A stretch of 64,000 bases of DNA, from the NCBI GenBank assembly GCA_963801605.1, contig CAWDFP010000006.1, positions 992,001 to 1,056,000 of the forward strand. The letters run 5' to 3'. Positions 1,518 through 44,094 of this stretch are shown piece by piece; within the stretch, counting starts at the first letter, position 1; each line of letters begins with the position of its first letter. Made by a program: the position numbers and the translations under genes. The notes under the pieces were generated by a model, which worked only from the letters and a program-made list of their open reading frames with translations, searched no databases and was not told the origin of the DNA. The stretch is from an uncultured candidate division Zixibacteria bacterium. GTDB taxonomy: Bacteria; Zixibacteria; MSB-5A5; UBA10806.

Positions 1518-2618
1518 TTGGATGTCGAATTGGATAATTTTGATGCAGTGAGCGGTATTTCCGCAACTGATAAATCGCTTAAAATAAACGACCTCTTGAA
1601 GTTCACCAAGGATCAGGGAGCTTCGGATTTACATCTTTCCGAAGGCTCGATCCCGATGATCCGCATAGACGGCCGTTTACATAAGCTTGATCTGCCCGGG
1701 CTGACTCGCCAGGGGATCAAGGATCTGGTTTTAAGTTCCATGACCAGCGAACAAATCAAGCGCTTTGAGCAGAGTTTCGAGGTCGACTTCGCTAAGGAGA
1801 TTGACGATAGCACCAGATTCCGCTGCAACGTCTATCGTCAAATTAACGGTATTGGCGGAGCTTTCAGAACCATTCCTGCCGATATTCGGACATTCGAGGA
1901 GCTTGGTCTTCCCGATATTATGAAGAGGTTGGCGCTTCTGGAGCGCGGATTGGTTCTTCTAACCGGTCCTACCGGTTCAGGCAAGACCACTTCGCTGGCC
2001 ACCATGGTCGACTGGATAAATCAGCACAAAGAATGCCATGTCATCACGATCGAAGATCCTGTGGAGTTTTTCCATCACAGCCGGCACAGCCTCATCAATC
2101 AGCGTGAGCTGGGAGCCTCGACCCAATCGTTCGGTAACGCCTTAAGAGCGGCACTGCGCGAGGACCCGGATGTTATTCTGGTGGGCGAGATGCGCGACCT
2201 GGAGACGGTATCGCTGGCCCTGACAGCGGCCGAAACCGGTCACCTGGTACTGGCGACTCTGCATACCTCATCGGCTACCAAAACGATCGACCGTATTCTC
2301 GATATCTTCCCATCAGAGCAGAAAGCGCAAGTGCGTTCAATGCTCTCTGAGTCGATTCAGGCGGTTGTCGCCCAATCGCTTTTGCCCCGCAAGGACAAAG
2401 GCCGGGTGGCGGCGCTCGAAGTTATGATAGCTACTGTTGCGGTGAGAAACCTGATTCGTGAAGACAAAATCTACCAGATCCCCTCAATCATTCAAGCCGG
2501 CGGTAAACAGGGAATGCAATCTCTCGATCAGCATCTTCTGACGCTGGTGGCTGAGGGCAAGATTGAGCGTTCCACGGCGGCTCAGCGCGCCGATAACCCG
2601 AAGCTCTTTTTGGATTAG
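1518..2618 (+). CDS. pilT: pilus retraction ATPase PilT
   Basis: GPTGSGKT, TIEDPVE, LREDPDVILVGEMRD, TGHLVLATLH, AVRNLIRE motif. Confidence 0.93.
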   Translation: MDVELDNFDAVSGISATDKSLKINDLLKFTKDQGASDLHLSEGSIPMIRIDGRLHKLDLPGLTRQGIKDLVLSSMTSEQIKRFEQSFEVDFAKEIDDSTRFRCNVYRQINGIGGAFRTIPADIRTFEELGLPDIMKRLALLERGLVLLTGPTGSGKTTSLATMVDWINQHKECHVITIEDPVEFFHHSRHSLINQRELGASTQSFGNALRAALREDPDVILVGEMRDLETVSLALTAAETGHLVLATLHTSSATKTIDRILDIFPSEQKAQVRSMLSESIQAVVAQSLLPRKDKGRVAALEVMIATVAVRNLIREDKIYQIPSIIQAGGKQGMQSLDQHLLTLVAEGKIERSTAAQRADNPKLFLD

Positions 2619-18168: not shown

Positions 18169-19872
18169 ATGCAGTTATTAGGAGAAGTGCTCCTTAAGGA
18201 GAAGCTTATCGCCGAAGATAAGCTGCAGTTAGGGCTGAAAAAACAGAAGGAGAACGGCAAGAGACTCGGCGAAGTTTTGCTCTCCGAAGGTTTGATTACC
18301 GACGAAAAACTGGCGTTTGGCCTGTCCCGTCAGCTTGGCGTACCGCTTATGACTACCGAGAGTTTGATGAAAGTCGATAAAGCGGCGCTGGAATTAATTC
18401 CCGAGTTTTTCGCCCGCGAATATCACTGTATGGCGTATGGCAAAGAAGATGATACTATTCAGGTAGTTTTAGTGGACCCGGAAGATATCGTGGTCCTCGA
18501 CAACCTGCATAAAATCACTTCTTACCAGCTTAGCATCAGCATTGCCCCGCAACTGATTATCGATGAAGCTATCGAGCGTCATTATAAAGAGTTGCGTACT
18601 ACGGGTGAGGTTTCCGAGGCCTTGTCAGGCATGGATTTTATCATCTCATCCGATGGCCACGAAATCGATGATATCGATGTCAACAAGCTTAAAGCCGAGC
18701 TCGATGAAGCGCCGATCGTAAAGTTGGTCAATCTTATCATCTCCGAGGCTATTAAAAGCCGGGCCACGGATATTCACATCGAGCCGCTGTTCGATGCGCT
18801 TCTTATCAGGTACAGAATTGATGGCGCCTTGCAGGAGATCATGACTGCTCCGCAGAAATCGGCAATGGCTATAATCTCCCGTATCAAGATTATGGCCAAC
18901 CTTAATATTGCTGAGCGGCGCTTACCTCAGGATGGTCGTATTACAATCAAGACTCCGGATAAGGAAGTCGACGTCCGTGTATCGCTTCTGCCGACAGTGC
19001 GCGGTGAAAAGATCGTGATGAGGTTGCTCGATAAAAAGGGATTTGAGTTTACTCTGACCAATCTTGGTTTCGAAAACGATATGCTTCAGATCTTCCGCAA
19101 GTGGATCACGATGCCCTACGGTATGATTATCGTATCAGGTCCTACCGGAAGCGGTAAATCCACCACGTTGCATGCCGCTTTGAAGTCCGTGCAAAATGAG
19201 GAAGACAATATCGTTACCGTAGAAGATCCGGTAGAGTATCAGATCGATAAGATCAACCAGGTTGCGACCAACGATTCAATCGGATTGACTTTCGGAACCA
19301 CCCTGAGACATATCTTAAGACAGGACCCTGATAAGATTCTAATCGGAGAAATTCGCGACCAGGAGACTGCCGATATCGCGGTGAAATTCTCTCTAACCGG
19401 TCACCTGGTGTTTACTACCCTGCACGCCAACGATGCACCATCAACTATTACCAGGCTTCTGGATATCGGGATGCCGCGCTATCTAACCGGCTCGGTGACA
19501 AACCTGGTCATGGCTCAGCGCTTGGTAAGAACAATCTGCAAGGCCTGCAAATATGAATATCCCGCTACCGTCGAAGAGTTAAAAACTCTCAAGATGGATC
19601 CTGATAAGTACAAAGGCGCCACCTTCTTTAAGGGCAAAGGATGTGTCCGCTGTCGTAATACCGGCTCCTTTGGCCGTACCGCCCTGTTCGAACTCATGGA
19701 GATGAAGCTTCCGCTCAGAAAGGTAATTTTCGAGGGCAAGAATGAGGACGATGTCAGGTTGGAAGCTATCAGAAATGGTATGGTCACACTAAGAGATGCC
19801 GGTATCAGAAAAGCTCTGGCGGGCGTCGTCTCAGCCGAGGAAATCCTTAAGAAGACTGTGAATGAGGATTAA
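18169..19872 (+). CDS. pilB: pilus extension ATPase PilB/GspE family
   Basis: MshEN-like N-terminus, ERRLPQDG, GPTGSGKS, LRQDPD, CxxC..CxxC. Confidence 0.9.
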   Translation: MQLLGEVLLKEKLIAEDKLQLGLKKQKENGKRLGEVLLSEGLITDEKLAFGLSRQLGVPLMTTESLMKVDKAALELIPEFFAREYHCMAYGKEDDTIQVVLVDPEDIVVLDNLHKITSYQLSISIAPQLIIDEAIERHYKELRTTGEVSEALSGMDFIISSDGHEIDDIDVNKLKAELDEAPIVKLVNLIISEAIKSRATDIHIEPLFDALLIRYRIDGALQEIMTAPQKSAMAIISRIKIMANLNIAERRLPQDGRITIKTPDKEVDVRVSLLPTVRGEKIVMRLLDKKGFEFTLTNLGFENDMLQIFRKWITMPYGMIIVSGPTGSGKSTTLHAALKSVQNEEDNIVTVEDPVEYQIDKINQVATNDSIGLTFGTTLRHILRQDPDKILIGEIRDQETADIAVKFSLTGHLVFTTLHANDAPSTITRLLDIGMPRYLTGSVTNLVMAQRLVRTICKACKYEYPATVEELKTLKMDPDKYKGATFFKGKGCVRCRNTGSFGRTALFELMEMKLPLRKVIFEGKNEDDVRLEAIRNGMVTLRDAGIRKALAGVVSAEEILKKTVNED

Positions 19873-19920
19873 TATAATAGTTCAAACGGGGAGCAAATGC
19901 CCCGCAGGAGAGAGTCATAA

Positions 19921-21174
19921 ATGGCAACTTTTTCTTATGTAGTAAAAGACAGCAAGGGTAATAAGCACGAAGGAACCATTTCGGCAAACTCCCTCGATGC
20001 TGCCCTGAATAAGCTCCGGGAGTCGGGCCAGACTGTAATTTCGGTGCTCGATACCAAGCTGACGGAAGCGGGCAGGCAGCGGGGCCTGATCGACGAAATA
20101 ACTCTTTATATCTATAAGCTTCGGACTCGTGTTCCGCTGGGAACGCTGGTATTTTTTACCAGCCAGATGGCTACCATGTTTTCAGCCGGTTTGACGATTG
20201 AAAAAGCTCTGAATAACCTGCTTTATGAAGAGTCAAACAAGAAGTTCAAAAAAATCGTAGCCCAACTTCTCAACGATGTTAAAAAGGGTTTCTCGATGTC
20301 GGATGCTATGGAACGGCATCCCGGCGTATTTTCGCCTCTCTATATTGCGTTAGTGCGCTCGGGTGAAATTTCAGGCTCCTTGCACGGTGTACTGGAAGAA
20401 CTCGCCGACTATTTGGAGTTTATCCAGGATACCAAGCGTAAAATCCTTTCGGCCATGTCATATCCCGCCTTCGTGGTTATGGTGTTGACAGGCCTGACTA
20501 TCGTGTTGATGACCTGGGTAGTGCCGATGTTCGAAGGAGTATATGCCAAATTTAACGCCAAGCTTCCCGTTCCGACCCAGGTTCTTATTCATGTTTCTGA
20601 TGTAATTACCGCCAACTTTTTCTATACGCTAATTGGTGTTATTCTTCTGACGGCGGGATTTATTGTAGTCAGCTTGACCGAAACCGGGCGAAAAGTAATC
20701 GACAGAATTAAACTTAAAATTCCAATTATTAATACCATCATCACCAACTCCCTGATGAGTAAATTCTGCCGAACCTTTGGAATGCTTTTGGGCGCGGGCG
20801 TGCCGGTGGTGGATTCCATGAACCTGGTATACAGGGTTATGGATAATGTTCATTATAAGGCGGCGGTGCGCGAGGCGACGGGCTTGGTTAGAGATGGTTA
20901 CTCAATCGCAGCCTCTCTTAAGAAAACCGACGCTTTCCCCAATACTCTGATTTCCCTGGCGGCCACGGGCGAGGAAACCGGAGATATGGATAAGATGCTT
21001 ACCAAAGCCGCGCAGTTTTATGACAAACAACTCGAAGCGGTTATTACCCGTTTGACATCGCTGATCGAGCCGATGCTGATCGTGCTGATCGCCATTGTCA
21101 TCGGGACTATCGTTATCATCATTTATCTGCCGGTGTTTTATCTCGGTTTTGCCTTCAGAAAAGGTATCAGTTAA
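19921..21174 (+). CDS. pilC: platform protein PilC/GspF
   Basis: FTSQMATMFSAG, GEISGSL, MSYP, GEETGDM, LIEP. Confidence 0.9.
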   Translation: MATFSYVVKDSKGNKHEGTISANSLDAALNKLRESGQTVISVLDTKLTEAGRQRGLIDEITLYIYKLRTRVPLGTLVFFTSQMATMFSAGLTIEKALNNLLYEESNKKFKKIVAQLLNDVKKGFSMSDAMERHPGVFSPLYIALVRSGEISGSLHGVLEELADYLEFIQDTKRKILSAMSYPAFVVMVLTGLTIVLMTWVVPMFEGVYAKFNAKLPVPTQVLIHVSDVITANFFYTLIGVILLTAGFIVVSLTETGRKVIDRIKLKIPIINTIITNSLMSKFCRTFGMLLGAGVPVVDSMNLVYRVMDNVHYKAAVREATGLVRDGYSIAASLKKTDAFPNTLISLAATGEETGDMDKMLTKAAQFYDKQLEAVITRLTSLIEPMLIVLIAIVIGTIVIIIYLPVFYLGFAFRKGIS

Positions 21175-35002: not shown

Positions 35003-36169
35003 GTGAGTTTCGCGGGCAACCTGAAAACCGTATCTCCGGCTGATATTTTCCAGCTTATTGTCACTTCCAAAAAAACAGGTGCCCTGTCTATAGTTAAAAG
35101 CGATTCCCGCCGCTTCATTTACTTCCAGGATGGTCTTCTCACATTTGCCTCATCCTCCGACAAACAGGATATGTTCGGAAGCCTGCTGCTTAAAAAAGGA
35201 AGAATTTCCAAACCTGAGCTTGATGCCATTCTTAAAGAAAAACATGATGGCAAGAAAATCGGCCAGGTATTGGTTGAAAAAGGAATCCTAACCCGGGATG
35301 AGGTTTTCGACTGTCTCAAGATGCAGATCGATGAGATAGTCTATAGTCTTTTCGGATGGAAAGACGGCGACTTCGAATTCATCGAGGGAAAGGCGCCGCC
35401 GCCCGATGTCATTCTTACCGAGCTCAATCCCATGAATATGATCATGGAGGGGATGCGGCGTATTGATGAATGGACCGAACTAAAAAAGATTCTGCCCTCC
35501 GATGATGCCCAAATCGAGCTGGTGGTTGATCCGGTCATGAGAAACGAAGAGATGAGACTTACCAAGGATGAGTTTATCGCCCTGGCGTTGATCGGATCTG
35601 GCAAGAGATTCTCGAAAGTTGTGGAAGAAAGTTACCTGGACCAGTTCCAAACCTGCAAGGCGCTGGCTAATTTGTTACAGATGGGGCTTATCAAGGTCGG
35701 GAAAATTCTTCCGGTAATTAAAAACTCAGAGCAGGAACAGAAAAATTTAGTCGAACTATTAGCCCAGGTTTATATCAGCAATCTGGCGCTTATCTTCTCC
35801 GGATTAAAAGAAAAGCTGGGTAACAAAGGCGACCGGGTGATATTCGAGACGTTCGAAGAAAATAAAATGTTTTATCCGATCTTAAGCCAGTTTTTTACCG
35901 CTCGCGATGGTACCATTAATTTTGAGCACTTCCTTGAATTCTATAAAAGATTGCCGGAAGAGGCTCGAATCTGGCGCATTGTTTCAAATTTCAACTCCCT
36001 CCTCAACGATTACCTCGTGGCTGTCCAAAGGCATCTCGGAAATAAGATTTACCGTCGAGTGGTTTCCGAAATTAAAATAAATATCCAAAACAGTATTAAT
36101 CGCAATCGCCAATTGGCCTTAAAGTACGGGCTCGAAGAAGAATTTTCGCGAGCCTTGCGAGATAGATAA
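35003..36169 (+). CDS. DUF4388 domain protein with MshEN-like helices
   Basis: FAGNLKTVS..DIFQLI...KKTG.L, LFGWKDGDFEF, MEGMRRIDEW. Confidence 0.8.
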   Translation: MSFAGNLKTVSPADIFQLIVTSKKTGALSIVKSDSRRFIYFQDGLLTFASSSDKQDMFGSLLLKKGRISKPELDAILKEKHDGKKIGQVLVEKGILTRDEVFDCLKMQIDEIVYSLFGWKDGDFEFIEGKAPPPDVILTELNPMNMIMEGMRRIDEWTELKKILPSDDAQIELVVDPVMRNEEMRLTKDEFIALALIGSGKRFSKVVEESYLDQFQTCKALANLLQMGLIKVGKILPVIKNSEQEQKNLVELLAQVYISNLALIFSGLKEKLGNKGDRVIFETFEENKMFYPILSQFFTARDGTINFEHFLEFYKRLPEEARIWRIVSNFNSLLNDYLVAVQRHLGNKIYRRVVSEIKINIQNSINRNRQLALKYGLEEEFSRALRDR

Positions 36170-36173
36170 TTTC

Positions 36174-36539
36174 ATGAAGAAATCCTTCGTTGTTCTTATT
36201 ACCGGGCTTGTCCTGGCGGATCATGGACACGCTAATGCCATGACATCCACAGGATATGCTATACTGGGCGAGTCATTTTCGCTGGTATTGTTATTGGCCT
36301 GTCTCATTATTGCATCGCTTATTATAACGGAGCTTCGAGGCGGGAAATTTGGCCAGCCCTGGATTTTTATGGCCGCCGGATTTGCCGTTGCTCTGGCAGC
36401 CAGCGTAATCCATTTACTCGATCTGAAGGCAATTATCTTTGGCGATTATGATCTCAGGCCTATTTACCTCGCGGCCCGAACTGCTTCAATGCTTTTAATC
36501 CTGGTTGGCCTTTTTTTCTATAAGAAGGGGCTGCAATAA
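36174..36539 (+). CDS. small integral membrane protein
   Basis: Hydrophobic N-terminus plus three TM segments; tightly coupled to upstream gene. Confidence 0.6.
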   Translation: MKKSFVVLITGLVLADHGHANAMTSTGYAILGESFSLVLLLACLIIASLIITELRGGKFGQPWIFMAAGFAVALAASVIHLLDLKAIIFGDYDLRPIYLAARTASMLLILVGLFFYKKGLQ

Positions 36540-36614: not shown

Positions 36615-37439
36615 ATGATTGATGTCATTGAAATAGACGAACGTATCGCCAAGTGCGAAAAGATTCTCGATATGAATCCGCAAAGCCAGATTTTTGCGGC
36701 TTTGGCCGATGCCTATCGCAAAAGGGGAGATTTGGCCAGAGCTCAGGAAATTTGCAATGATGGGCTGAAACTTCACCCGTCTTACGCATCGGCTCGAGTC
36801 GTCATGGCTAAAATTCAATTGGCCAGAGGGAATTATGATTTGGCCTCCGATGAACTTAAAATGGCCATCCTCTCAACCGGACGCACCAGGGCGATCGATG
36901 TTTTAGAAGCTGAGATATTAATCAGACGCGGCCAGAAAGCCGAGGCCTGCCTTATCCTCCAGGGACTCGAGGCAACTGACCCCGATGACGAAAATGTAAA
37001 GAATCTCAAAGCGCTTCTCGATGAAAAACCGAACCCGGATAAGATCGAACTGCCTGCGGATTTATCGCTTAAGCTCGAAAGAGCCGATCAAAAGAGCCTT
37101 ACGCTTGCTCATGCCTTAAGTGTTCTTAAAGTTATGCCGCGCGTTATGGGCGTGATTGCAGTTGGATCTAACGGGCTTCTCCTTGATGGCCGTTTCGACA
37201 GCCATAATGTTAAAGAGGAATTTGCGGCTCTTTCAAAAGGCTTTGTTGATTGGGCAACACAGGGAAGCCAGCGCATCGATTTCGGGGCGGTAAATGAGGT
37301 GCTGATTGAAACCACTTCGTCGAAAATCTGGATTTTCGATAAAATAAAGTATCTGCTCGTAGTTTTTACCAGAGATGATGTCAGCATGGGTGCTCTTAAA
37401 CTGAAAATAGATGATCTCTTTAGAGACATTGTTATTTGA
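36615..37439 (+). CDS. TPR protein with C-terminal roadblock/LC7 domain
   Basis: FAALADAYRKRG..A...C..GL..HP.Y TPR; C-terminal GVIAVG.NGLLL...FAALS. Confidence 0.75.
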   Translation: MIDVIEIDERIAKCEKILDMNPQSQIFAALADAYRKRGDLARAQEICNDGLKLHPSYASARVVMAKIQLARGNYDLASDELKMAILSTGRTRAIDVLEAEILIRRGQKAEACLILQGLEATDPDDENVKNLKALLDEKPNPDKIELPADLSLKLERADQKSLTLAHALSVLKVMPRVMGVIAVGSNGLLLDGRFDSHNVKEEFAALSKGFVDWATQGSQRIDFGAVNEVLIETTSSKIWIFDKIKYLLVVFTRDDVSMGALKLKIDDLFRDIVI

Positions 37440-37448
37440 GGAATCGAT

Positions 37449-37898
37449 ATGGCCCGAGCAAAAGCAGTTAAAAAAAACCAGGACAAATTTCAAATGGCTG
37501 TCAACTATTTGATCGAGTACGATGGGGTAAGGGGAGTCGCTATCGCCGATCCCGAAGGGCTGGTTATAGCTCGCGGCGGAAACGATTTCGATGCCGAGCT
37601 CCATTGTGCCCTGGCGCAGCAAATTACAGCATCCTTAGATGCTATATTGCCGAAATTAATAACTCCGGGAATCGAACATCTTATTGTCAAAACCCCGCAG
37701 GATTGGCTGACCGTGGCTCGCTCGGCAACCTTTCTTCTGATTGTGGTGGCCAAACGAAATGCCGATGAGCTTCTTAATATCCGAATCGGCAAAGCGCTTG
37801 AAATGATTTCATCTCATCTAAAAGGCAAATATCAACCGGCCTTTTCGACTGACCCATCCGGAGTCAAGGCGAAAAAAATGGAGGCTATAAATGTATGA
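37449..37898 (+). CDS. roadblock/LC7 domain protein
   Basis: GVRGVAIADPEGLVIA. Confidence 0.78.
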   Translation: MARAKAVKKNQDKFQMAVNYLIEYDGVRGVAIADPEGLVIARGGNDFDAELHCALAQQITASLDAILPKLITPGIEHLIVKTPQDWLTVARSATFLLIVVAKRNADELLNIRIGKALEMISSHLKGKYQPAFSTDPSGVKAKKMEAINV

Positions 37899-38229
37899 TG
37901 TTTTAGGCGATCTCAACAAGACCTCCGGAGTCAAAGGCTCTATGCTGGTCGGCAACGACGGTATCATTATCGCCGCAGATCTCGATGCCAAGCTCGAAGA
38001 CGAAACCGTAGGCGCGATGGCAGCTTCGATTATGACCAACATCGGCAAAGCTCTGGGTCGGCTTAAACAACATAACCTGGAAAGAGTAACCATCGAGGCT
38101 GATGCAGGAAAAATATTCCTATGCGAGGCCGGAGTTGGGATCCTGGCAGTTGTAACTGAGCCGCAGGTTAATGTCGGATTAGTCAGGTTGGAGATTAAAA
38201 ACGCCGTTTCGCAAATTAAGGGGATGTAG
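37891..38229 (+). CDS. roadblock/LC7 domain protein (MglB/MglC-like)
   Basis: GVKGSMLVGNDGIIIA, GAMAA, NVGLVRLEIK. Confidence 0.85.
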   Translation: MYDVLGDLNKTSGVKGSMLVGNDGIIIAADLDAKLEDETVGAMAASIMTNIGKALGRLKQHNLERVTIEADAGKIFLCEAGVGILAVVTEPQVNVGLVRLEIKNAVSQIKGM

Positions 38230-38242
38230 AGAGGAATTTGGG

Positions 38243-39451
38243 ATGGTATCCATTAATTACGCTTTCAGGGAGATTATCTCCAAAATAGTTTACTATGGTC
38301 CGGGCCTCTCAGGGAAGACTACTAACCTTCAGTATGTCTTTAAAAAGATTCCCAGTGAAACCCGCGGCGAGCTCATCAGCCTGGCAACTGACGCCGACAG
38401 GACTCTATATTTCGATTTTCTGCCTGTCAATGTTGGAACGATACAGGGTTTTGCCACCAAATTCCAACTCTATACGGTTCCCGGCCAGGTGTATTACAAC
38501 GCCACGCGCAAGCTTGTTCTACGGGGCGTGGATGGCTTGGTATTCGTGGCAGATAGCCAACTGGCCAAGATGGATGAGAATCTTGAATCGCTCCATAATC
38601 TAAAAGACAACCTCGAGGAATATGGGTACGATATGTGCCAGATTCCTTTGGTTATACAATACAATAAACGTGATTTACCGGATATCGTATCAATCGCCGA
38701 CCTTGAGAAAGCTCTTAACCCGGGCGGCTTGCCGTACTTTGAGGCCGTGGCCGTCACGGGCGATGGAGTGTTTAAGACACTTAAAGCCATAAGTAAAATC
38801 GTTCTGGATCAGGTAAAGGCCAAAAGAATGGAACCGGCCAAGGTTATTAAAACGCAAACGCAACCTCAACCAGCGCCCAAGGTGCCCGTGGGAGTAGCCC
38901 CGGCCGCCAGCCCGCGAGCAGTTAATAATGAAGTACTTGTTGCTCAACCAAAACCTGAGATTATTAGCCGGGGAGTCGAGGTGCCGGAATCTAAGCTAAA
39001 ATCCGATGATAAGATTGGTACCAGCCAGGTTGAATCTGCAATCATTTCCGATATACCGGGCAGAGTGGTGGTATCTGACGCGCAGGATGATAAACCGCAG
39101 CCTCATGAGGAATCAGTGCATCAGACAGCCACCGAAGAGACAACCGAAAAGGCTGTCATTCGGGATGAAGCACCAGAGCACGGTACGAAGAGCATCGTTG
39201 TTAGCCAGGATTTTGGTCTTACCAACGAATATAGCGTGGTTGACACCAAAGAAGAGGCTTCCCAGGGCAAGGGATGGCTTTCGTATAATGACAACAAATC
39301 AGTCAGCGAAGATGATAATGACGAAATAGAAGACATTAGTCTAAAAAGCGCTTTGCCGTTACGCAAACCGCAAATGGCTGAGAGCCGTAAGGTAAAGAAT
39401 AAAACAGGGAAGTTTAATATCTTCGGCTGGTTCAAGAAATCGAAAAAATAA
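38243..39451 (+). CDS. mglA: small Ras-like GTPase MglA with ~210-aa C-terminal extension
   Basis: KIVYYGPGLSGKTTNL, DRTLYFDFLP, YTVPGQVYY, DGLVFVADSQ, QYNKRDLP as in Myxococcus MglA. Confidence 0.93.
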   Translation: MVSINYAFREIISKIVYYGPGLSGKTTNLQYVFKKIPSETRGELISLATDADRTLYFDFLPVNVGTIQGFATKFQLYTVPGQVYYNATRKLVLRGVDGLVFVADSQLAKMDENLESLHNLKDNLEEYGYDMCQIPLVIQYNKRDLPDIVSIADLEKALNPGGLPYFEAVAVTGDGVFKTLKAISKIVLDQVKAKRMEPAKVIKTQTQPQPAPKVPVGVAPAASPRAVNNEVLVAQPKPEIISRGVEVPESKLKSDDKIGTSQVESAIISDIPGRVVVSDAQDDKPQPHEESVHQTATEETTEKAVIRDEAPEHGTKSIVVSQDFGLTNEYSVVDTKEEASQGKGWLSYNDNKSVSEDDNDEIEDISLKSALPLRKPQMAESRKVKNKTGKFNIFGWFKKSKK

Positions 39452-39477
39452 TACCTGGCGATAAAAGGAGGTTTAAG

Positions 39478-39963
39478 TTGTCTCAAGAACAACAGGTCCT
39501 CTATGAGGATCAAATTCAGCAGATCGATCAGGTCCTGAGCCGGATCATCAGGGAAGCGGAGGCTAAATGCGCGCTCCTGGTGGATAAGGACGGGCACCTC
39601 ATCACGCGGCAGGGGTTTACCCATACTCTCGATACCACGGCCCTGGCTGCTCTTCTGGCGGGAAGCTTCGCCTCCACGAAGGAGATTGCTCGCCTGGTTG
39701 GCGAACCGGAGTTTTCGGTTCTTTTCCATCAGGGGAAAAAAGATCATATCCATATCTCACTTATCGACGAGCGCACCATTATGGTGGTGATTTTCGACGA
39801 CCGCACCACGATCGGTATGATCAGGCTCTATGCCAAAGAAATCGGAGAGACTTTAAAAACTATTCTGTCTGGCACATCGGAAAGCAAACATGATGATCTT
39901 GAATTGGGCAAGGATTTCTCGGATAGCGCTGAAGCTAAACTCAACGATATTTTCCAGGAATAG
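39478..39963 (+). CDS. mglB: MglB GTPase-activating protein
   Basis: LVDKDGHLI, DTTALAALLAG, LVGEPEF..LFHQG, VVIFDDRTT.G..RL, acidic C-terminal helix. Confidence 0.88.
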   Translation: MSQEQQVLYEDQIQQIDQVLSRIIREAEAKCALLVDKDGHLITRQGFTHTLDTTALAALLAGSFASTKEIARLVGEPEFSVLFHQGKKDHIHISLIDERTIMVVIFDDRTTIGMIRLYAKEIGETLKTILSGTSESKHDDLELGKDFSDSAEAKLNDIFQE

Positions 39964-40011: not shown

Positions 40012-41706
40012 ATGGCAATAGAGCTCGGTAAGATACTTGTCAAAGCCGGCAAAATCACAGAAGTCCAACTTCAAAAGGCGCTGGAAATGCAAAAAAACGG
40101 CGCCGGTAAGCTGGGTGAGATCTTGGTTAAAATTGGCGCTATTACCGATGAAAATGTCATCTCGGAATTTATCGGAAAGCAGCTTAATATTGGTGCGTTA
40201 CGCTTAACCGATATTGAGCTCAATCCCGATATTGTTAAGCTTATCCCTCAGGATATCGCCCGTAAATTTAACGTTATTGCCGTTTCCAAACTTGGCAAGA
40301 CCCTGATTGTCGCCATTTCCGATCCTAATAATATTTATGTTCTCGATGCCATTAAATTTATCACCGGCTGCAATATTCAGCCGGTCATTTCGCCCGAAAA
40401 TACCATCCAGAGCGCTATCGAAACTTATTATGGTGATACCAGCGGCATCAATGAAATCATTAAGGGGATGAGCGCGAACTGGAGGTAGTCGAGGAGGCGG
40501 AAGATGACCCCATCGGAACAGGATCTGCAATCGCAGGTTCAGGATAAGCCTCTGGTGAAATTGGTCGATGGTATCATCGCCGATGCCATCAGAAAAGGCG
40601 CCTCAGATATTCATTTCGAAAGTTATGAAAAGCGCGTTCGGGTCCGTTATCGTATCGACGGCGTACTGCAGGAGATGGCTCCTATTCCGTTTAAATACCG
40701 GGCAGCCATCATTTCACGTATTAAGATTATGGCCGATCTCGATATTTCCGAGCGTCGATTACCGCAGGATGGCAGAATCAAGGTGAAGTTGGGCGAGCGC
40801 ACCATCGATCTTCGTGTTTCGGTTTTGCCAACAATTTTCGGCGAAAAGATCGTCATGAGAATTTTGGATCCCAAATCACTTATGATCGATCTGACCAAAC
40901 TTGGTTTTCCCGAGCTGGCGCTTGATAATTTTAGCAAAGCTATCAGTCTGCCTTATGGCATGATTCTGGTTACGGGGCCTACCGGATCCGGTAAAACTAC
41001 GACCCTGTATTCGGCCTTAAAGACGTTGAATACGATTGATGTTAATATTATGACTGCCGAAGATCCGGTCGAGTTCAATTTCGACGGTATTAATCAGGTA
41101 TTGGTTAGATCCGATATTGGCCTTACTTTTGCCGCCGCGCTACGCTCCTTCTTACGCCAGGACCCCGATATCATCATGGTGGGCGAGATTCGCGACGGCG
41201 AAACTGCCGATATTGCCATCAAGGCCGCCTTAACCGGTCACCTCGTATTTTCAACTCTGCATACCAATGACGCACCTTCGACCATCAACAGGCTGGTGGA
41301 TATGGGCGTACCCAGCTACCTGGTAGCGGCTTCTACAAAGTTAATCATGGCTCAAAGAATGGTGCGTAAAATCTGCACCTTCTGTAAACAGGAAGTGGCC
41401 ATTGACGCCCAAAATCGCCGATATACTTCGATTGGATACCGAAGAAACTAAATCAATGAAGCTATTCGAGGGAAAAGGCTGCAATCAATGTAATGGTACC
41501 GGGTTATTCCGGAAGAACCGGCCTTTTCGAAGTTATGCCGATATCACCGGCTATTGAAAAGATGATCGTCCTGAACGCGTCGACGGCCGAAATAAGGGCT
41601 CAGGCCATGAGCGAAGGGATGCTGACTCTTGCGTCACGCCGGGTTTGAAAAACTTCGCCTGGGGATCTCCTCGCTGGAAGAAATAGTAGCCGAGACTGCG
41701 GTATAA
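40012..41706 (+). CDS. pilB: type IVa pilus extension ATPase PilB, frameshifted near 40475-40512 and 41410-41640
   Basis: ORFs 40012-40488 and 40504-41451 plus downstream fragments (GKGCNQCNGTG, FEVMPI, EEIVAETAV*); LRSFLRQDPD. Confidence 0.88.
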
Positions 41707-41759: not shown

Positions 41760-42891
41760 ATGGTTACACTACGCGAATTACTCGAATTGATGGTTAAGCG
41801 CCGAGCCTCCGATCTTCATCTTACGGTTGGCGCTCCACCGGTTATTAGAATAGATGGCAAGCTCGTCAGAACCGACTACGAGATATTGACGCCTGATTTA
41901 ACCAAGAAGCTGGCTTATTCGATCATGAACGAAAGGCAGCGCCAGAAATTTGAGGAAAATTCGGAGCTCGATTTGTCTTTTGGAATTGAGCATCTATCTC
42001 GTTTCCGCTGTAACGTTTTCATGCAGCGAGGCAACGTAGCGGTAGCTTTGCGTCAGATTCCGTTCAAGGTTCTGACTTTTGAGGAACTTGGGTATTCCCG
42101 ATACGATTGTTAAATTAGCCGAACTGCCTCGTGGTCTGGTTCTTGTAACAGGTCCTACGGGCTCAGGCAAATCTACAACTCTTGCGGCTCTGATGGATAA
42201 AATAAATACCGAACGGCAACTGCACATAATAACCGTAGAAGATCCAATTGAGTATCTTCACCGCCATAAATCATCGCTTGTCAATCAGCGCGAAGTCCAT
42301 TCAGATACGAAGAGCTTTGCAGCTTCGCTTAAATATGCTCTTCGCCAGGATCCCGATGTGGTTCTGATCGGAGAAATGCGCGATCTGGAAACGATGGAAG
42401 CAGCCCTGACGATTTCCGAAACGGGCCACCTGGCGTTCGCCACGTTGCATACCAACTCCACCGCCGAAGCCATTAATCGTATTGTTGACGTATTTCCTCA
42501 TACGCAGCAGGAACAAGTACGAATCCAGCTTTCCTTTGTCTTGCAGGGAATTGTTACCCAGCAGCTTATCCCCAGGGTAAACGAGGGACGAGTTCTGGCC
42601 ATGGAAGTACTGATTGCTACACCTGCCGTCCGTGCCGTCATTCGTGATGATAAGATTCATCAGATTTATTCATTGATTCAGGCCGGACATAAGTATGGTA
42701 TGAAGACCATGAACCAATCGCTACTAGAGCTTTATACGAAAAAGAAAATAACATATAGTGATGCCCTTGCCAGATCGACAAACGCCTCAGAGTTCGAGGA
42801 GATGGCGCGGCAGGGTAATCTTCGTGGCGATGCTACCAGCAGAAACTTGGATGCCACGGGTAGAAACTTAGCTGAACAGATTGAGAGGTAA
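41760..42891 (+). CDS. pilT: pilus retraction ATPase PilT, frameshift near 42092
   Basis: ORFs 41760-42113 and 42079-42891 join as FEELG-IPD; GPTGSGKS, LRQDPD, GHLAFATLH. Confidence 0.9.
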
Positions 42892-42894
42892 GGC

Positions 42895-44094
42895 ATGCCT
42901 GTCTACGATTACAAAGGCAAATCCCTCGGAGGCAAGCAGGTCCAGGGTGAACTCAAGGCCAAAAACAGAGTTGAGCTCGAGAGGCTCCTGCGCTCCAATA
43001 AGATCTTAGTAACGAGCATTTCCAAAAGGCCGTCGCAAATTAAGATTCGCTTTGGAAGCGGTATTAAGAAGATCGACATCTCACGCTTTACTCGCCAGTT
43101 TGCCACTATGATCTCAGCCGGTCTTCCTATGGTGCAGTGCCTGGAAATACTTGCAACCCAGATGGAGTCTCCCGAATTTCGAAAAATAATTAACGAGGTT
43201 AAGGAGTCTGTGCAGTCGGGCTCAACCTTATCGGAGGCTATGAGCAGGCATAAGAAAGCCTTCGACGATCTCTACGTCAATATGGTAGAGGCCGGTGAGG
43301 TCGGTGGTGCTCTCGATACCATCTTGATACGTCTCGCCTCTTACCGCGAAAAAGCCGATAGGCTGGTTCGCAAAGTAAAAGGCGCCATGGTTTATCCTGT
43401 GGTGGTTATGATCGTAGCCATAGGCGTGACATTCGCGATGTTGCGATTCATCGTACCTGTATTCGCCAAAATGTTTTCCGGATTAAATGCCGCTTTGCCG
43501 GCGCCTACTCAATTCGTATTGAATATTTCCAATTTTCTGCGGGATAACTCCCTGATTCTTCTGGCAGGAGTCGCCGGCATCATCATAGCATATAAGCTTT
43601 TTGTTAGGAAACCAAACGGCCGACTGGCGGTTGATAAATTTAAACTTCGCATGCCGCTTCTTGGAGATCTCATCAGGAAAAGTTCGGTCTCGCGTTTTAC
43701 CCGGACTCTGGCGACACTGCTTTCTTCGGGTGTTTCAATTCTGGACGCCTTAAACATCACTGCAAAAACATCGGGCAATATGGTCCTGCAAAATGCTATC
43801 AAGCAGGCCATGCTCTCTATCGCCGAAGGTGAAACGATTACCGCTCCCCTTAAGGATTCCGGAGTATTCCCGCCAATGGTAACCCAGATGATTTCGGTTG
43901 GTGAGAAGACGGGCGGAATGGATGAGATGCTGACCAAGATCGCCGACTTCTACGATGAAGAAGTCGATGCGTCAGTGGCGGCTTTGACATCAATTATCGA
44001 GCCGGTCATTATTGTATTCATGGGCGGTATGATAGGCGCTATTTTGATAGCCATGTATCTACCCATGTTCGATATCGTCGGAAAGATTAACTAG
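42895..44094 (+). CDS. pilC: type IVa pilus platform protein PilC
   Basis: FTRQFATMISAGLP, GEVGGALD, AMVYP, GEKTG, AMYLPMF. Confidence 0.93.
   Translation: MPVYDYKGKSLGGKQVQGELKAKNRVELERLLRSNKILVTSISKRPSQIKIRFGSGIKKIDISRFTRQFATMISAGLPMVQCLEILATQMESPEFRKIINEVKESVQSGSTLSEAMSRHKKAFDDLYVNMVEAGEVGGALDTILIRLASYREKADRLVRKVKGAMVYPVVVMIVAIGVTFAMLRFIVPVFAKMFSGLNAALPAPTQFVLNISNFLRDNSLILLAGVAGIIIAYKLFVRKPNGRLAVDKFKLRMPLLGDLIRKSSVSRFTRTLATLLSSGVSILDALNITAKTSGNMVLQNAIKQAMLSIAEGETITAPLKDSGVFPPMVTQMISVGEKTGGMDEMLTKIADFYDEEVDASVAALTSIIEPVIIVFMGGMIGAILIAMYLPMFDIVGKIN

Follow-up and report, generated by a model that had tools for sequence, protein, structure and literature searches.

An MglA GTPase with a Predicted C-Terminal Membrane Anchor in Zixibacteria

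The mglA gene found in the window (the whole 64,000-nucleotide stretch of Zixibacteria DNA analyzed here) encodes a Ras-like GTPase of 402 aa. Its conserved last ~20 residues probably bind the cytoplasmic membrane directly from the inside, keeping the switch on a flexible leash from which it would regulate the adjacent type IV pilus motor. Phylum-wide conservation of the end, purifying selection acting on it, and the presence of a transmembrane helix in related proteins make membrane binding the most likely role of this end. The tailed MglA is real, is distributed throughout the phylum Zixibacteria, and has apparently not been described previously.

The mglA Gene and Its Neighborhood

The mglA gene was represented by a single open frame (38243..39451, + strand). 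Residues 1–192 (38243..38818, +) formed a G domain of the group-1 type with GPGLSGKTT, the R53 arginine finger, TVPGQ including Q82, and NKRD. PDB chains of Myxococcus xanthus MglA matched residues 3–192 with an E value of 1e-78 (phmmer). R53, which adjoins the G2 threonine, was aligned to M. xanthus MglA, and both R53 and Q82 have identical numbering in the two proteins; an intrinsic arginine finger is described as a feature of group-1 MglA (PMC4316618). Judging by these motifs, the window protein is a group-1 MglA with intact catalytic residues, in line with the initial annotation, which had reported a complete GTPase domain retaining the arginine finger and PGQ. It is a variant rather than a canonical member of the group because of its length (402 aa; 311–649 aa in homologues).

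The tail begins with residue 193 at position 38819 and comprises 210 aa, confirming the earlier estimate of ~210 aa. A Pfam search of the tail gave zero matches. Residues 193–372 (38819..39358, +) made up a variable linker, predicted to be disordered from pLDDT values, the lack of Pfam matches, composition, and low identity. This linker had been described as Pro/Gln-rich and then acidic. Its acidic part was evident (net charge of −16 in residues 251–370), while the 55 residues from 196 to 250 contained 10 Pro and 4 Gln and were Pro/Val-rich more than Gln-rich. The C-terminal end (residues 371–402) had a net charge of +10. It included the conserved P-x-M-A-[PE]-S motif (residues 376–381; 39368..39385, +) and a polybasic stretch (residues 383–390; 39389..39412, +), both located by column counts over 87 homologues. 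They were followed by the predicted membrane anchor, which consisted of the aromatic/hydrophobic block F391–F397 and the basic end K398–K402 with the stop codon (39413..39451, +). K390 begins at 39410, K402 finishes at 39448, and TAA occupies 39449–39451. As had been noted, the frame ends just ahead of the ribosome-binding site of mglB, the AGGAGG sequence 3' of the mglA stop (39466..39471, +); the mglB start codon is TTG at 39478.

Upstream of mglA, genes encoding a DUF4388 protein (35003..36169, +; Pfam DUF4388; 60 of 60 loci), a small hydrophobic protein, a TPR–roadblock fusion protein, and two roadblock proteins were found. The DUF4388 protein gave an MshE-type c-di-GMP motif match (NF053729) of 38.2 bits, just over the cut-off of 38, and may feed a c-di-GMP signal into the module. 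The small hydrophobic protein (121 aa; 36174..36539, +) had no family match and had orthologues in loci of the same family. The TPR–roadblock fusion protein (274 aa; 36615..37439, +) matched Pfam TPR_19 and, weakly, Robl_LC7, and was encoded in all 60 loci. Roadblock protein 1 (149 aa; 37449..37898, +; Pfam Robl_LC7) was detected in 56 of the 60 loci and had no membrane domain here. It is longer in other families, where 54 of 58 long orthologue matches (L043–L102) reached a hydropathy of 1.9 or more over 19 residues; their hydrophobic N-terminal domain is probably multi-pass, with the short form found in the window's order. Roadblock protein 2 (112 aa; 37891..38229, +; Pfam Robl_LC7) was present in 60/60 loci.

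The mglB gene (39478..39963, +), located downstream of mglA in 60/60 loci, encodes a predicted GAP with a C-terminal helix region; its residues 5–161 matched the PDB entry of M. xanthus MglB with an E value of 2e-32. It was followed by genes of the type IVa pilus motor: the extension ATPase gene pilB (40012..41700, +; TIGR02538 matches on two pieces), the retraction ATPase gene pilT (41760..42891, +; frames 3 and 1; TIGR01420), and the gene of the inner-membrane platform protein pilC (42895..44094, +; NF052606, E value of 1e-153). The gene order DUF4388, TPR–roadblock, roadblock 2, mglA, mglB, and pilB was kept in 60/60 loci, with pilT found in 54 and pilC in 53 of them. Scans for promoters and terminators remained at chance level, and a plasmid search gave one short match of the Deinococcus type. 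Further PilT-like, PilB/GspE-like, and PilC/GspF-like genes were located earlier in the window (1578–2609, 18178–21138).

The window mglA was the sole MglA gene detected in its genome (87% complete). A protein with a RomR-like layout (receiver, long disordered linker, and C-terminal helix) was encoded elsewhere in the genome (L185:91-1167, i.e., G000:C6:976990-978066). At E ≤ 1e-12, matches to this protein came from 44 of the 61 class genomes, many of them via the receiver domain alone, and its C-terminal helix lacked the Trp and Pro described as invariant in RomR-C (PMC3441718). The idea that the MglA tail substitutes for RomR was dropped as unsupported.

Conservation of the C-Terminal End in Zixibacteria

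For the comparison within the phylum, 90 loci were taken, 30 from matches in related genomes and 60 hand-picked to span families. Two loci running off contig ends and one duplicate were dropped, leaving 87 complete homologues that represent 16 families; f14 and f17 lay outside the sample, and f3 gave no match. All 87 homologues were tailed, with a total length of 311–649 aa and tails of 119–457 aa, and all contained the G1–G4 motifs (GPGLSGKTT, TVPGQ/Q82, and NKRD). The mean identity to the window MglA for the G domain, the linker, and the last 28 residues was 85, 31, and 71% in its own family, 79, 24, and 58% in the sister family, and 74, 23, and 32% in other families. The linker was thus only 23–31% identical to those of homologues, and it was net negative in 79 of the 87; families f1 and f2 retain short internal motifs within it.

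Synonymous and non-synonymous codon differences from a same-genus gene numbered 107 and 12 in the G domain, 52 and 81 in the linker, and 13 and 2 in the last 30 codons. By these counts, the last 30 codons are under purifying selection and are about as strongly conserved as the G domain, while the linker drifts.

The initial annotation proposed aligning homologues to see if conservation is confined to the last ~13 residues. Conservation of the terminus was indeed found, but its extent was larger: about 28 terminal residues, including P376 and M378, were conserved. A length of 13 residues is too short because conservation covers three segments: P-x-M-A-[PE]-S (376–381), the basic run (383–390), and the hydrophobic block (391–397) with the lysines that follow it. 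P376 was kept in 76 of the 87 homologues, M378 in 61, the alanine in 53, and the serine in 59. Columns 383, 385, 389, and 390 were basic in 71–89% of the homologues, and columns 393, 394, and 397 were hydrophobic in 99–100%.

A basic-plus-aromatic rule, framed after the homologue sequences had been inspected, was applied to the last 25 residues: a net charge of at least +4, at least two F/W, and two hydrophobic pairs separated by 1–2 residues. It was satisfied by 86 of the 87 Zixibacteria homologues and by 115 of 120 database matches, against a background of 25/2278 crude ORFs of this genome, 0/483 linker 25-mers, and 17/17400 tail shuffles. A lack of conservation of the terminal motif, which had been named as a ground for rejecting the anchor, was therefore not observed. 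The chemistry of the end is kept across families while its letters are not (32% identity), as expected of a lipid-binding surface. The highest 19-residue hydropathy in the 87 tails was 1.27, indicating no transmembrane helix.

The window pilB and pilT genes were frameshifted in this assembly, as seen from tblastn span and frames. The assembly thus carries indel errors, and the MglA tail had to be checked as a possible artefact of error-prone assembly or a product of neutral read-through. The pilB gene was whole in 57 of 60 relatives and pilT in 52 of 54; the breaks in the window (40012–41700 and 41760–42891) are probably sequencing indels, and ORF breaks in this genome call for caution. The mglA frame behaved differently. 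A same-genus gene aligned in frame across residues 1–402, and 38 of 41 related genomes matched the window MglA, many of them across residues 1–402 without stops. Independent database proteins with 97%, 87%, and 74–77% identity had equal length and an equal end. In a scan of the phylum, 197 of 201 genomes gave matches; among the 150 matches listed, open frames were 238–661 aa in length, the two shortest running off their contigs. Together with the tails of all 87 complete homologues and the purifying selection on the end, these data refute an artefactual origin of the tail, to which we assign practically no probability.

Tailed MglA Proteins outside Zixibacteria

We compared 81 complete MglA proteins from other lineages, encoded by 80 metagenome loci and one Nitrospiraceae paralogue. 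Tails of at least 40 aa were found in 20 of them: 15 satisfied the basic-plus-aromatic rule, 3 had a transmembrane helix, 1 had a short basic-aromatic run off the rule, and 1 (L120) had no visible anchor. The transmembrane-tailed proteins were encoded at L138:1242-2195, L181:3043-4020, and L136:151-1224. Among 120 relatives of the L138 protein, 118 ended in a 19-residue hydrophobic helix (hydropathy of at least 1.8) followed by a median of 8 residues. These proteins are referred to as Planctomycetota on the basis of the 7 of 120 relatives carrying an organism name, all of which belonged to Planctomycetota; Atlas clusters agree. Their linkers were net positive in 118/118, opposite to those of Zixibacteria. 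Two loci of the Planctomycetota type kept the TPR–roadblock/roadblock/mglA order, and one of them also had mglB downstream.

In a 77-row tree, the Zixibacteria proteins and the transmembrane forms were each recovered with high support (100/99 and 100/98, respectively). By their G domains, Zixibacteria, the transmembrane forms, L120, and L144 were placed on one side of a branch supported by 97/97; this tree is unrooted, and the group was named once a first tree had been seen. An AU test of Zixibacteria plus Planctomycetota alone as a clade (p 0.32) neither rejects nor shows such a grouping. The transmembrane helix at the equivalent position in related MglA proteins, an anchor of different chemistry, is the best indirect support for a membrane-binding end.

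A broader set consisted of 150 representatives at 50% identity, 147 of which were placed in a quick tree, with tail classes assigned by crude rules. A basic/aromatic motif was found in 35, a beta-like segment in 65, neither in 31, and a hydrophobic helix in 1; the other 15 were short. The Zixibacteria plus Planctomycetota group had 87% support in this tree, 23 of the 35 motif-bearing representatives fell outside the Zixibacteria clade, and 16 gains or losses are required to account for the anchor label. Long MglA proteins of the Myxococcus/Nitrospira type with tails of at least 30 aa did not pass the rule (0/85), and many resemble frameshift chimeras. A long MglA tail does not imply an anchor, and many long MglA proteins are without any.

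Several individual loci differed from the main types. L104:1294-2328 encodes a second MglA copy of 344 aa in a Nitrospiraceae genome; a coiled-coil-like segment is followed by a short basic-aromatic run, and there is no adjacent roadblock gene. The MglA encoded at L144:3838-4542 has a tail of 40 aa with a short amphipathic segment at its end and lies downstream of a CheA-like kinase, a receiver–DUF4388 protein, and a roadblock-like gene. L120:4001-5422, where the gene order is similar, encodes an MglA whose Pro-rich tail of 280 aa shows no anchor; the tree neighbors of this MglA do carry a terminal basic/aromatic motif.

Predicted Membrane Binding and Comparison with Known Systems

The initial annotation likened the end of the window MglA to an amphipathic motif of the MinD type. 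A basic/aromatic C-terminal motif was found, but the motif of the window protein itself was weakly amphipathic and not particularly MinD-like. It had 3/9 identities to the E. coli MinD anchor, the sequence of which is quoted in PMC5471200 and served as the reference for the 9-position comparison; 21 of the 87 homologues, all from other families, matched it at 7 or more of the 9 positions. The window motif is short and contains one Gly. Its hydrophobic moment was 0.43 versus a shuffle mean of 0.37 (p 0.38), with values of 0.43–0.60 depending on the placement of the calculation window. The moment exceeded the protein's own shuffle mean in 74 of the 87 homologues, in 8 of them at p < 0.05; this shuffle test is weak because the MinD motif itself gives p 0.14. 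In 85 of the 87 homologues, the moment was larger at 100 than at 170 degrees. The interfacial energy calculated by the Wimley–White scale, before electrostatics, was about −3.0 kcal/mol for the window block versus −0.56 kcal/mol for the E. coli MinD motif. In the AlphaFold2 model of the window MglA, residues 198–389 had pLDDT < 50 and no helix was predicted at the C-terminal end. The model of the tail alone contained no secondary structure, P-x-M-A-[PE]-S being its most confident part.

The likeness to the membrane-targeting sequence of MinD consists in the C-terminal position and in basic residues preceding hydrophobic pairs, seen in 86/87 homologues. MinD is an unrelated enzyme; compared with its motif, that of the window protein has another register (pair, one residue, pair) and more basic residues in a row, and it sits on a leash of 180 residues. 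A single E. coli MinD helix is reported to be too weak to bring GFP to the membrane while the B. subtilis helix suffices (PMC13537761), and E. coli MinD needs dimerization for stable binding (PMC5471200, PMC13537761).

In the mechanism that we propose, lysines and arginines at positions 383–390 and 398–402 would be attracted to anionic lipids, and F391, I393, F394, W396, and F397 would become buried in the interface, the segment probably turning into a short helix as it binds. With about 180 disordered residues between the anchor and the G domain, this binding probably does not depend on the nucleotide state, unlike that of E. coli MinD. The acidic linker, with a crudely estimated reach of about 14 nm as a coil and 64 nm fully stretched, would hold the G domain off the membrane surface and within reach of MglB, the roadblock proteins, and PilB/PilT/PilC. 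The site or timing of pilus extension would be decided by GTP/GDP cycling under the control of MglB and the additional roadblock proteins, as with MglA in M. xanthus, and MglB would turn the tethered switch off. Recruitment from the cytoplasm would be replaced by confinement to two dimensions. The action of MglA on the pilus motor is inferred here from gene order and analogy.

Lipid binding leaves the sequence conservation of P-x-M-A unexplained. The conservation of P-x-M-A-[PE]-S in sequence and its top confidence within the model of the tail alone would fit an end serving mainly as a docking peptide for an operon partner (the TPR/roadblock proteins, MglB, the DUF4388 protein, or PilB) or for a polar scaffold, membrane association then being indirect. 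TPR grooves commonly bind C-terminal peptides, a TPR protein is encoded in 60/60 loci, and relatives of the L144 protein end in a short amphipathic, weakly basic helix. However, the hydrophobic block varies freely between families while its chemistry is kept, and a true transmembrane helix replaces the end in related MglA proteins whose loci retain the TPR–roadblock gene; docking as the main function is thus unlikely. The two functions are compatible, and P-x-M-A may dock while the end binds lipid; alternatively, P-x-M-A-[PE]-S may form the beginning of the segment that binds the membrane.

The tail could also act within the molecule, the end folding onto the acidic linker or the G domain and gating nucleotide exchange or MglB access, or a disordered tail could drive polar condensates, with membrane binding being minor in both cases. 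A net negative linker in 79/87 homologues facing a strongly positive end, as well as the short internal motifs kept in families f1 and f2, would agree with such regulation. At the same time, AlphaFold2 gives the tail no confident structure, the linker length spans 119 to 457 residues, and the Planctomycetota linkers, net positive in 118/118, end in a transmembrane helix, which makes this explanation improbable. Beyond the direct membrane binding that we favor in Zixibacteria, the broad subfamily of tailed MglA proteins might have its own design of a G domain, a hypervariable linker, and a membrane anchor, with interchangeable anchors: a basic/aromatic helix in Zixibacteria and other lineages and a transmembrane helix in Planctomycetota. 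The Zixibacteria GTPase with four roadblock domains would then form a membrane-bound, Ragulator-like platform, docked via P-x-M-A, on the PilB/PilT/PilC motor. This extended proposal is speculative, and we consider it rather doubtful.

The window system shares the G domain, R53, TVPGQ with Q82, an adjacent MglB, and a link, here by gene order, to type IV pili with the group-1 MglA/MglB systems of M. xanthus and Thermus thermophilus (PDB 6h17, 6izw, and 3t12; PMC4316618). It differs from them in the length of MglA (402 aa versus 195–197 aa) and in the tail with the predicted anchor; in the locus, mglB lies downstream, and three more roadblock proteins and pilB–pilT–pilC are encoded in one gene row. 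In lipid droplets, the tail-less MglA of M. xanthus remains diffuse and is found at the interface only with MglB (PMC13408092).

The tail had also been compared to the membrane-anchoring tail of eukaryotic Ras. This analogy to a lipidated tail fails: Cys was found among the last 10 residues in 0/87 homologues, i.e., the CAAX motif is absent. RIT1 and RIT2 are better eukaryotic analogues because the homologues have no CAAX cysteine. These unprenylated Ras-family GTPases are described as targeted by a basic C-terminal extension without CAAX (PMC13565119). A small GTPase, a basic C-terminal extension, and the lack of a CAAX motif are common to both. RIT1/RIT2 belong to another GTPase family, and their extension of ~35 aa, described as unstructured and polybasic, adjoins the G domain, while the window MglA, unlike them, has an aromatic block and is spaced from it by a long acidic linker. 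Prokaryotic Ras-superfamily GTPases binding membranes directly are represented by ArcoA/DipA and, reportedly, the Asgard Arf GTPases (PMC11914678). ArcoA and DipA are archaeal; ArcoA, which positions division, binds the membrane via an N-terminal amphipathic helix, and the MglA family is called cytosolic in the same preprint (bioRxiv 10.64898/2026.07.23.738820).

No bacterial Ras-like switch has been studied better than MglA, which is described as a cytosolic protein brought to the pole by its partners. Should the anchor prove real, entire phyla would run the MglA switch tethered to the membrane, and polarity would be patterned via two-dimensional diffusion and membrane dwell time in place of cytoplasmic exchange. 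It would also provide a bacterial parallel to membrane-anchored eukaryotic GTPases. The weight of this finding is limited because archaea are already known to have Ras-superfamily GTPases that bind membranes directly and because bacteria commonly use basic/aromatic anchors at the C-terminus.

A literature search, with most subscription papers outside its coverage, revealed no paper on a C-terminally anchored MglA. Wuichet and Søgaard-Andersen, who screened proteins of 150–240 aa, listed 488 sequences of the MglA subclade, 449 of them shorter than 240 aa and 39 longer; the main-text parts covering this subclade do not mention membrane anchors (PMC4316618). Fremgen et al. (2010) described "Group II/MglA2" proteins of 225–327 aa, including a 313-aa protein of Fibrobacter succinogenes, with a C-terminal extension designated as a domain of unknown function; these are mostly second copies without MglB directly upstream, and no anchor is proposed in the section covering them (PMC3000849). 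Compared by description only, MglA2 resembles the window protein in being an MglA with a C-terminal extension, and the window protein differs in having a longer extension, roadblock genes on both sides, and the status of sole MglA in its genome. A real anchor would supply the function that the 2010 study could not give for the C-terminal extension. A beta-rich terminal segment was observed in a large class of long MglA proteins (P0402–P0525; 65/147 by a crude rule), and this beta-rich end may be what was called a "domain of unknown function" in 2010. In MglA proteins of 224–225 aa (L128, L133, L135, and similar loci), the extra length is an internal insertion of ~30 residues after G4 and not a tail.
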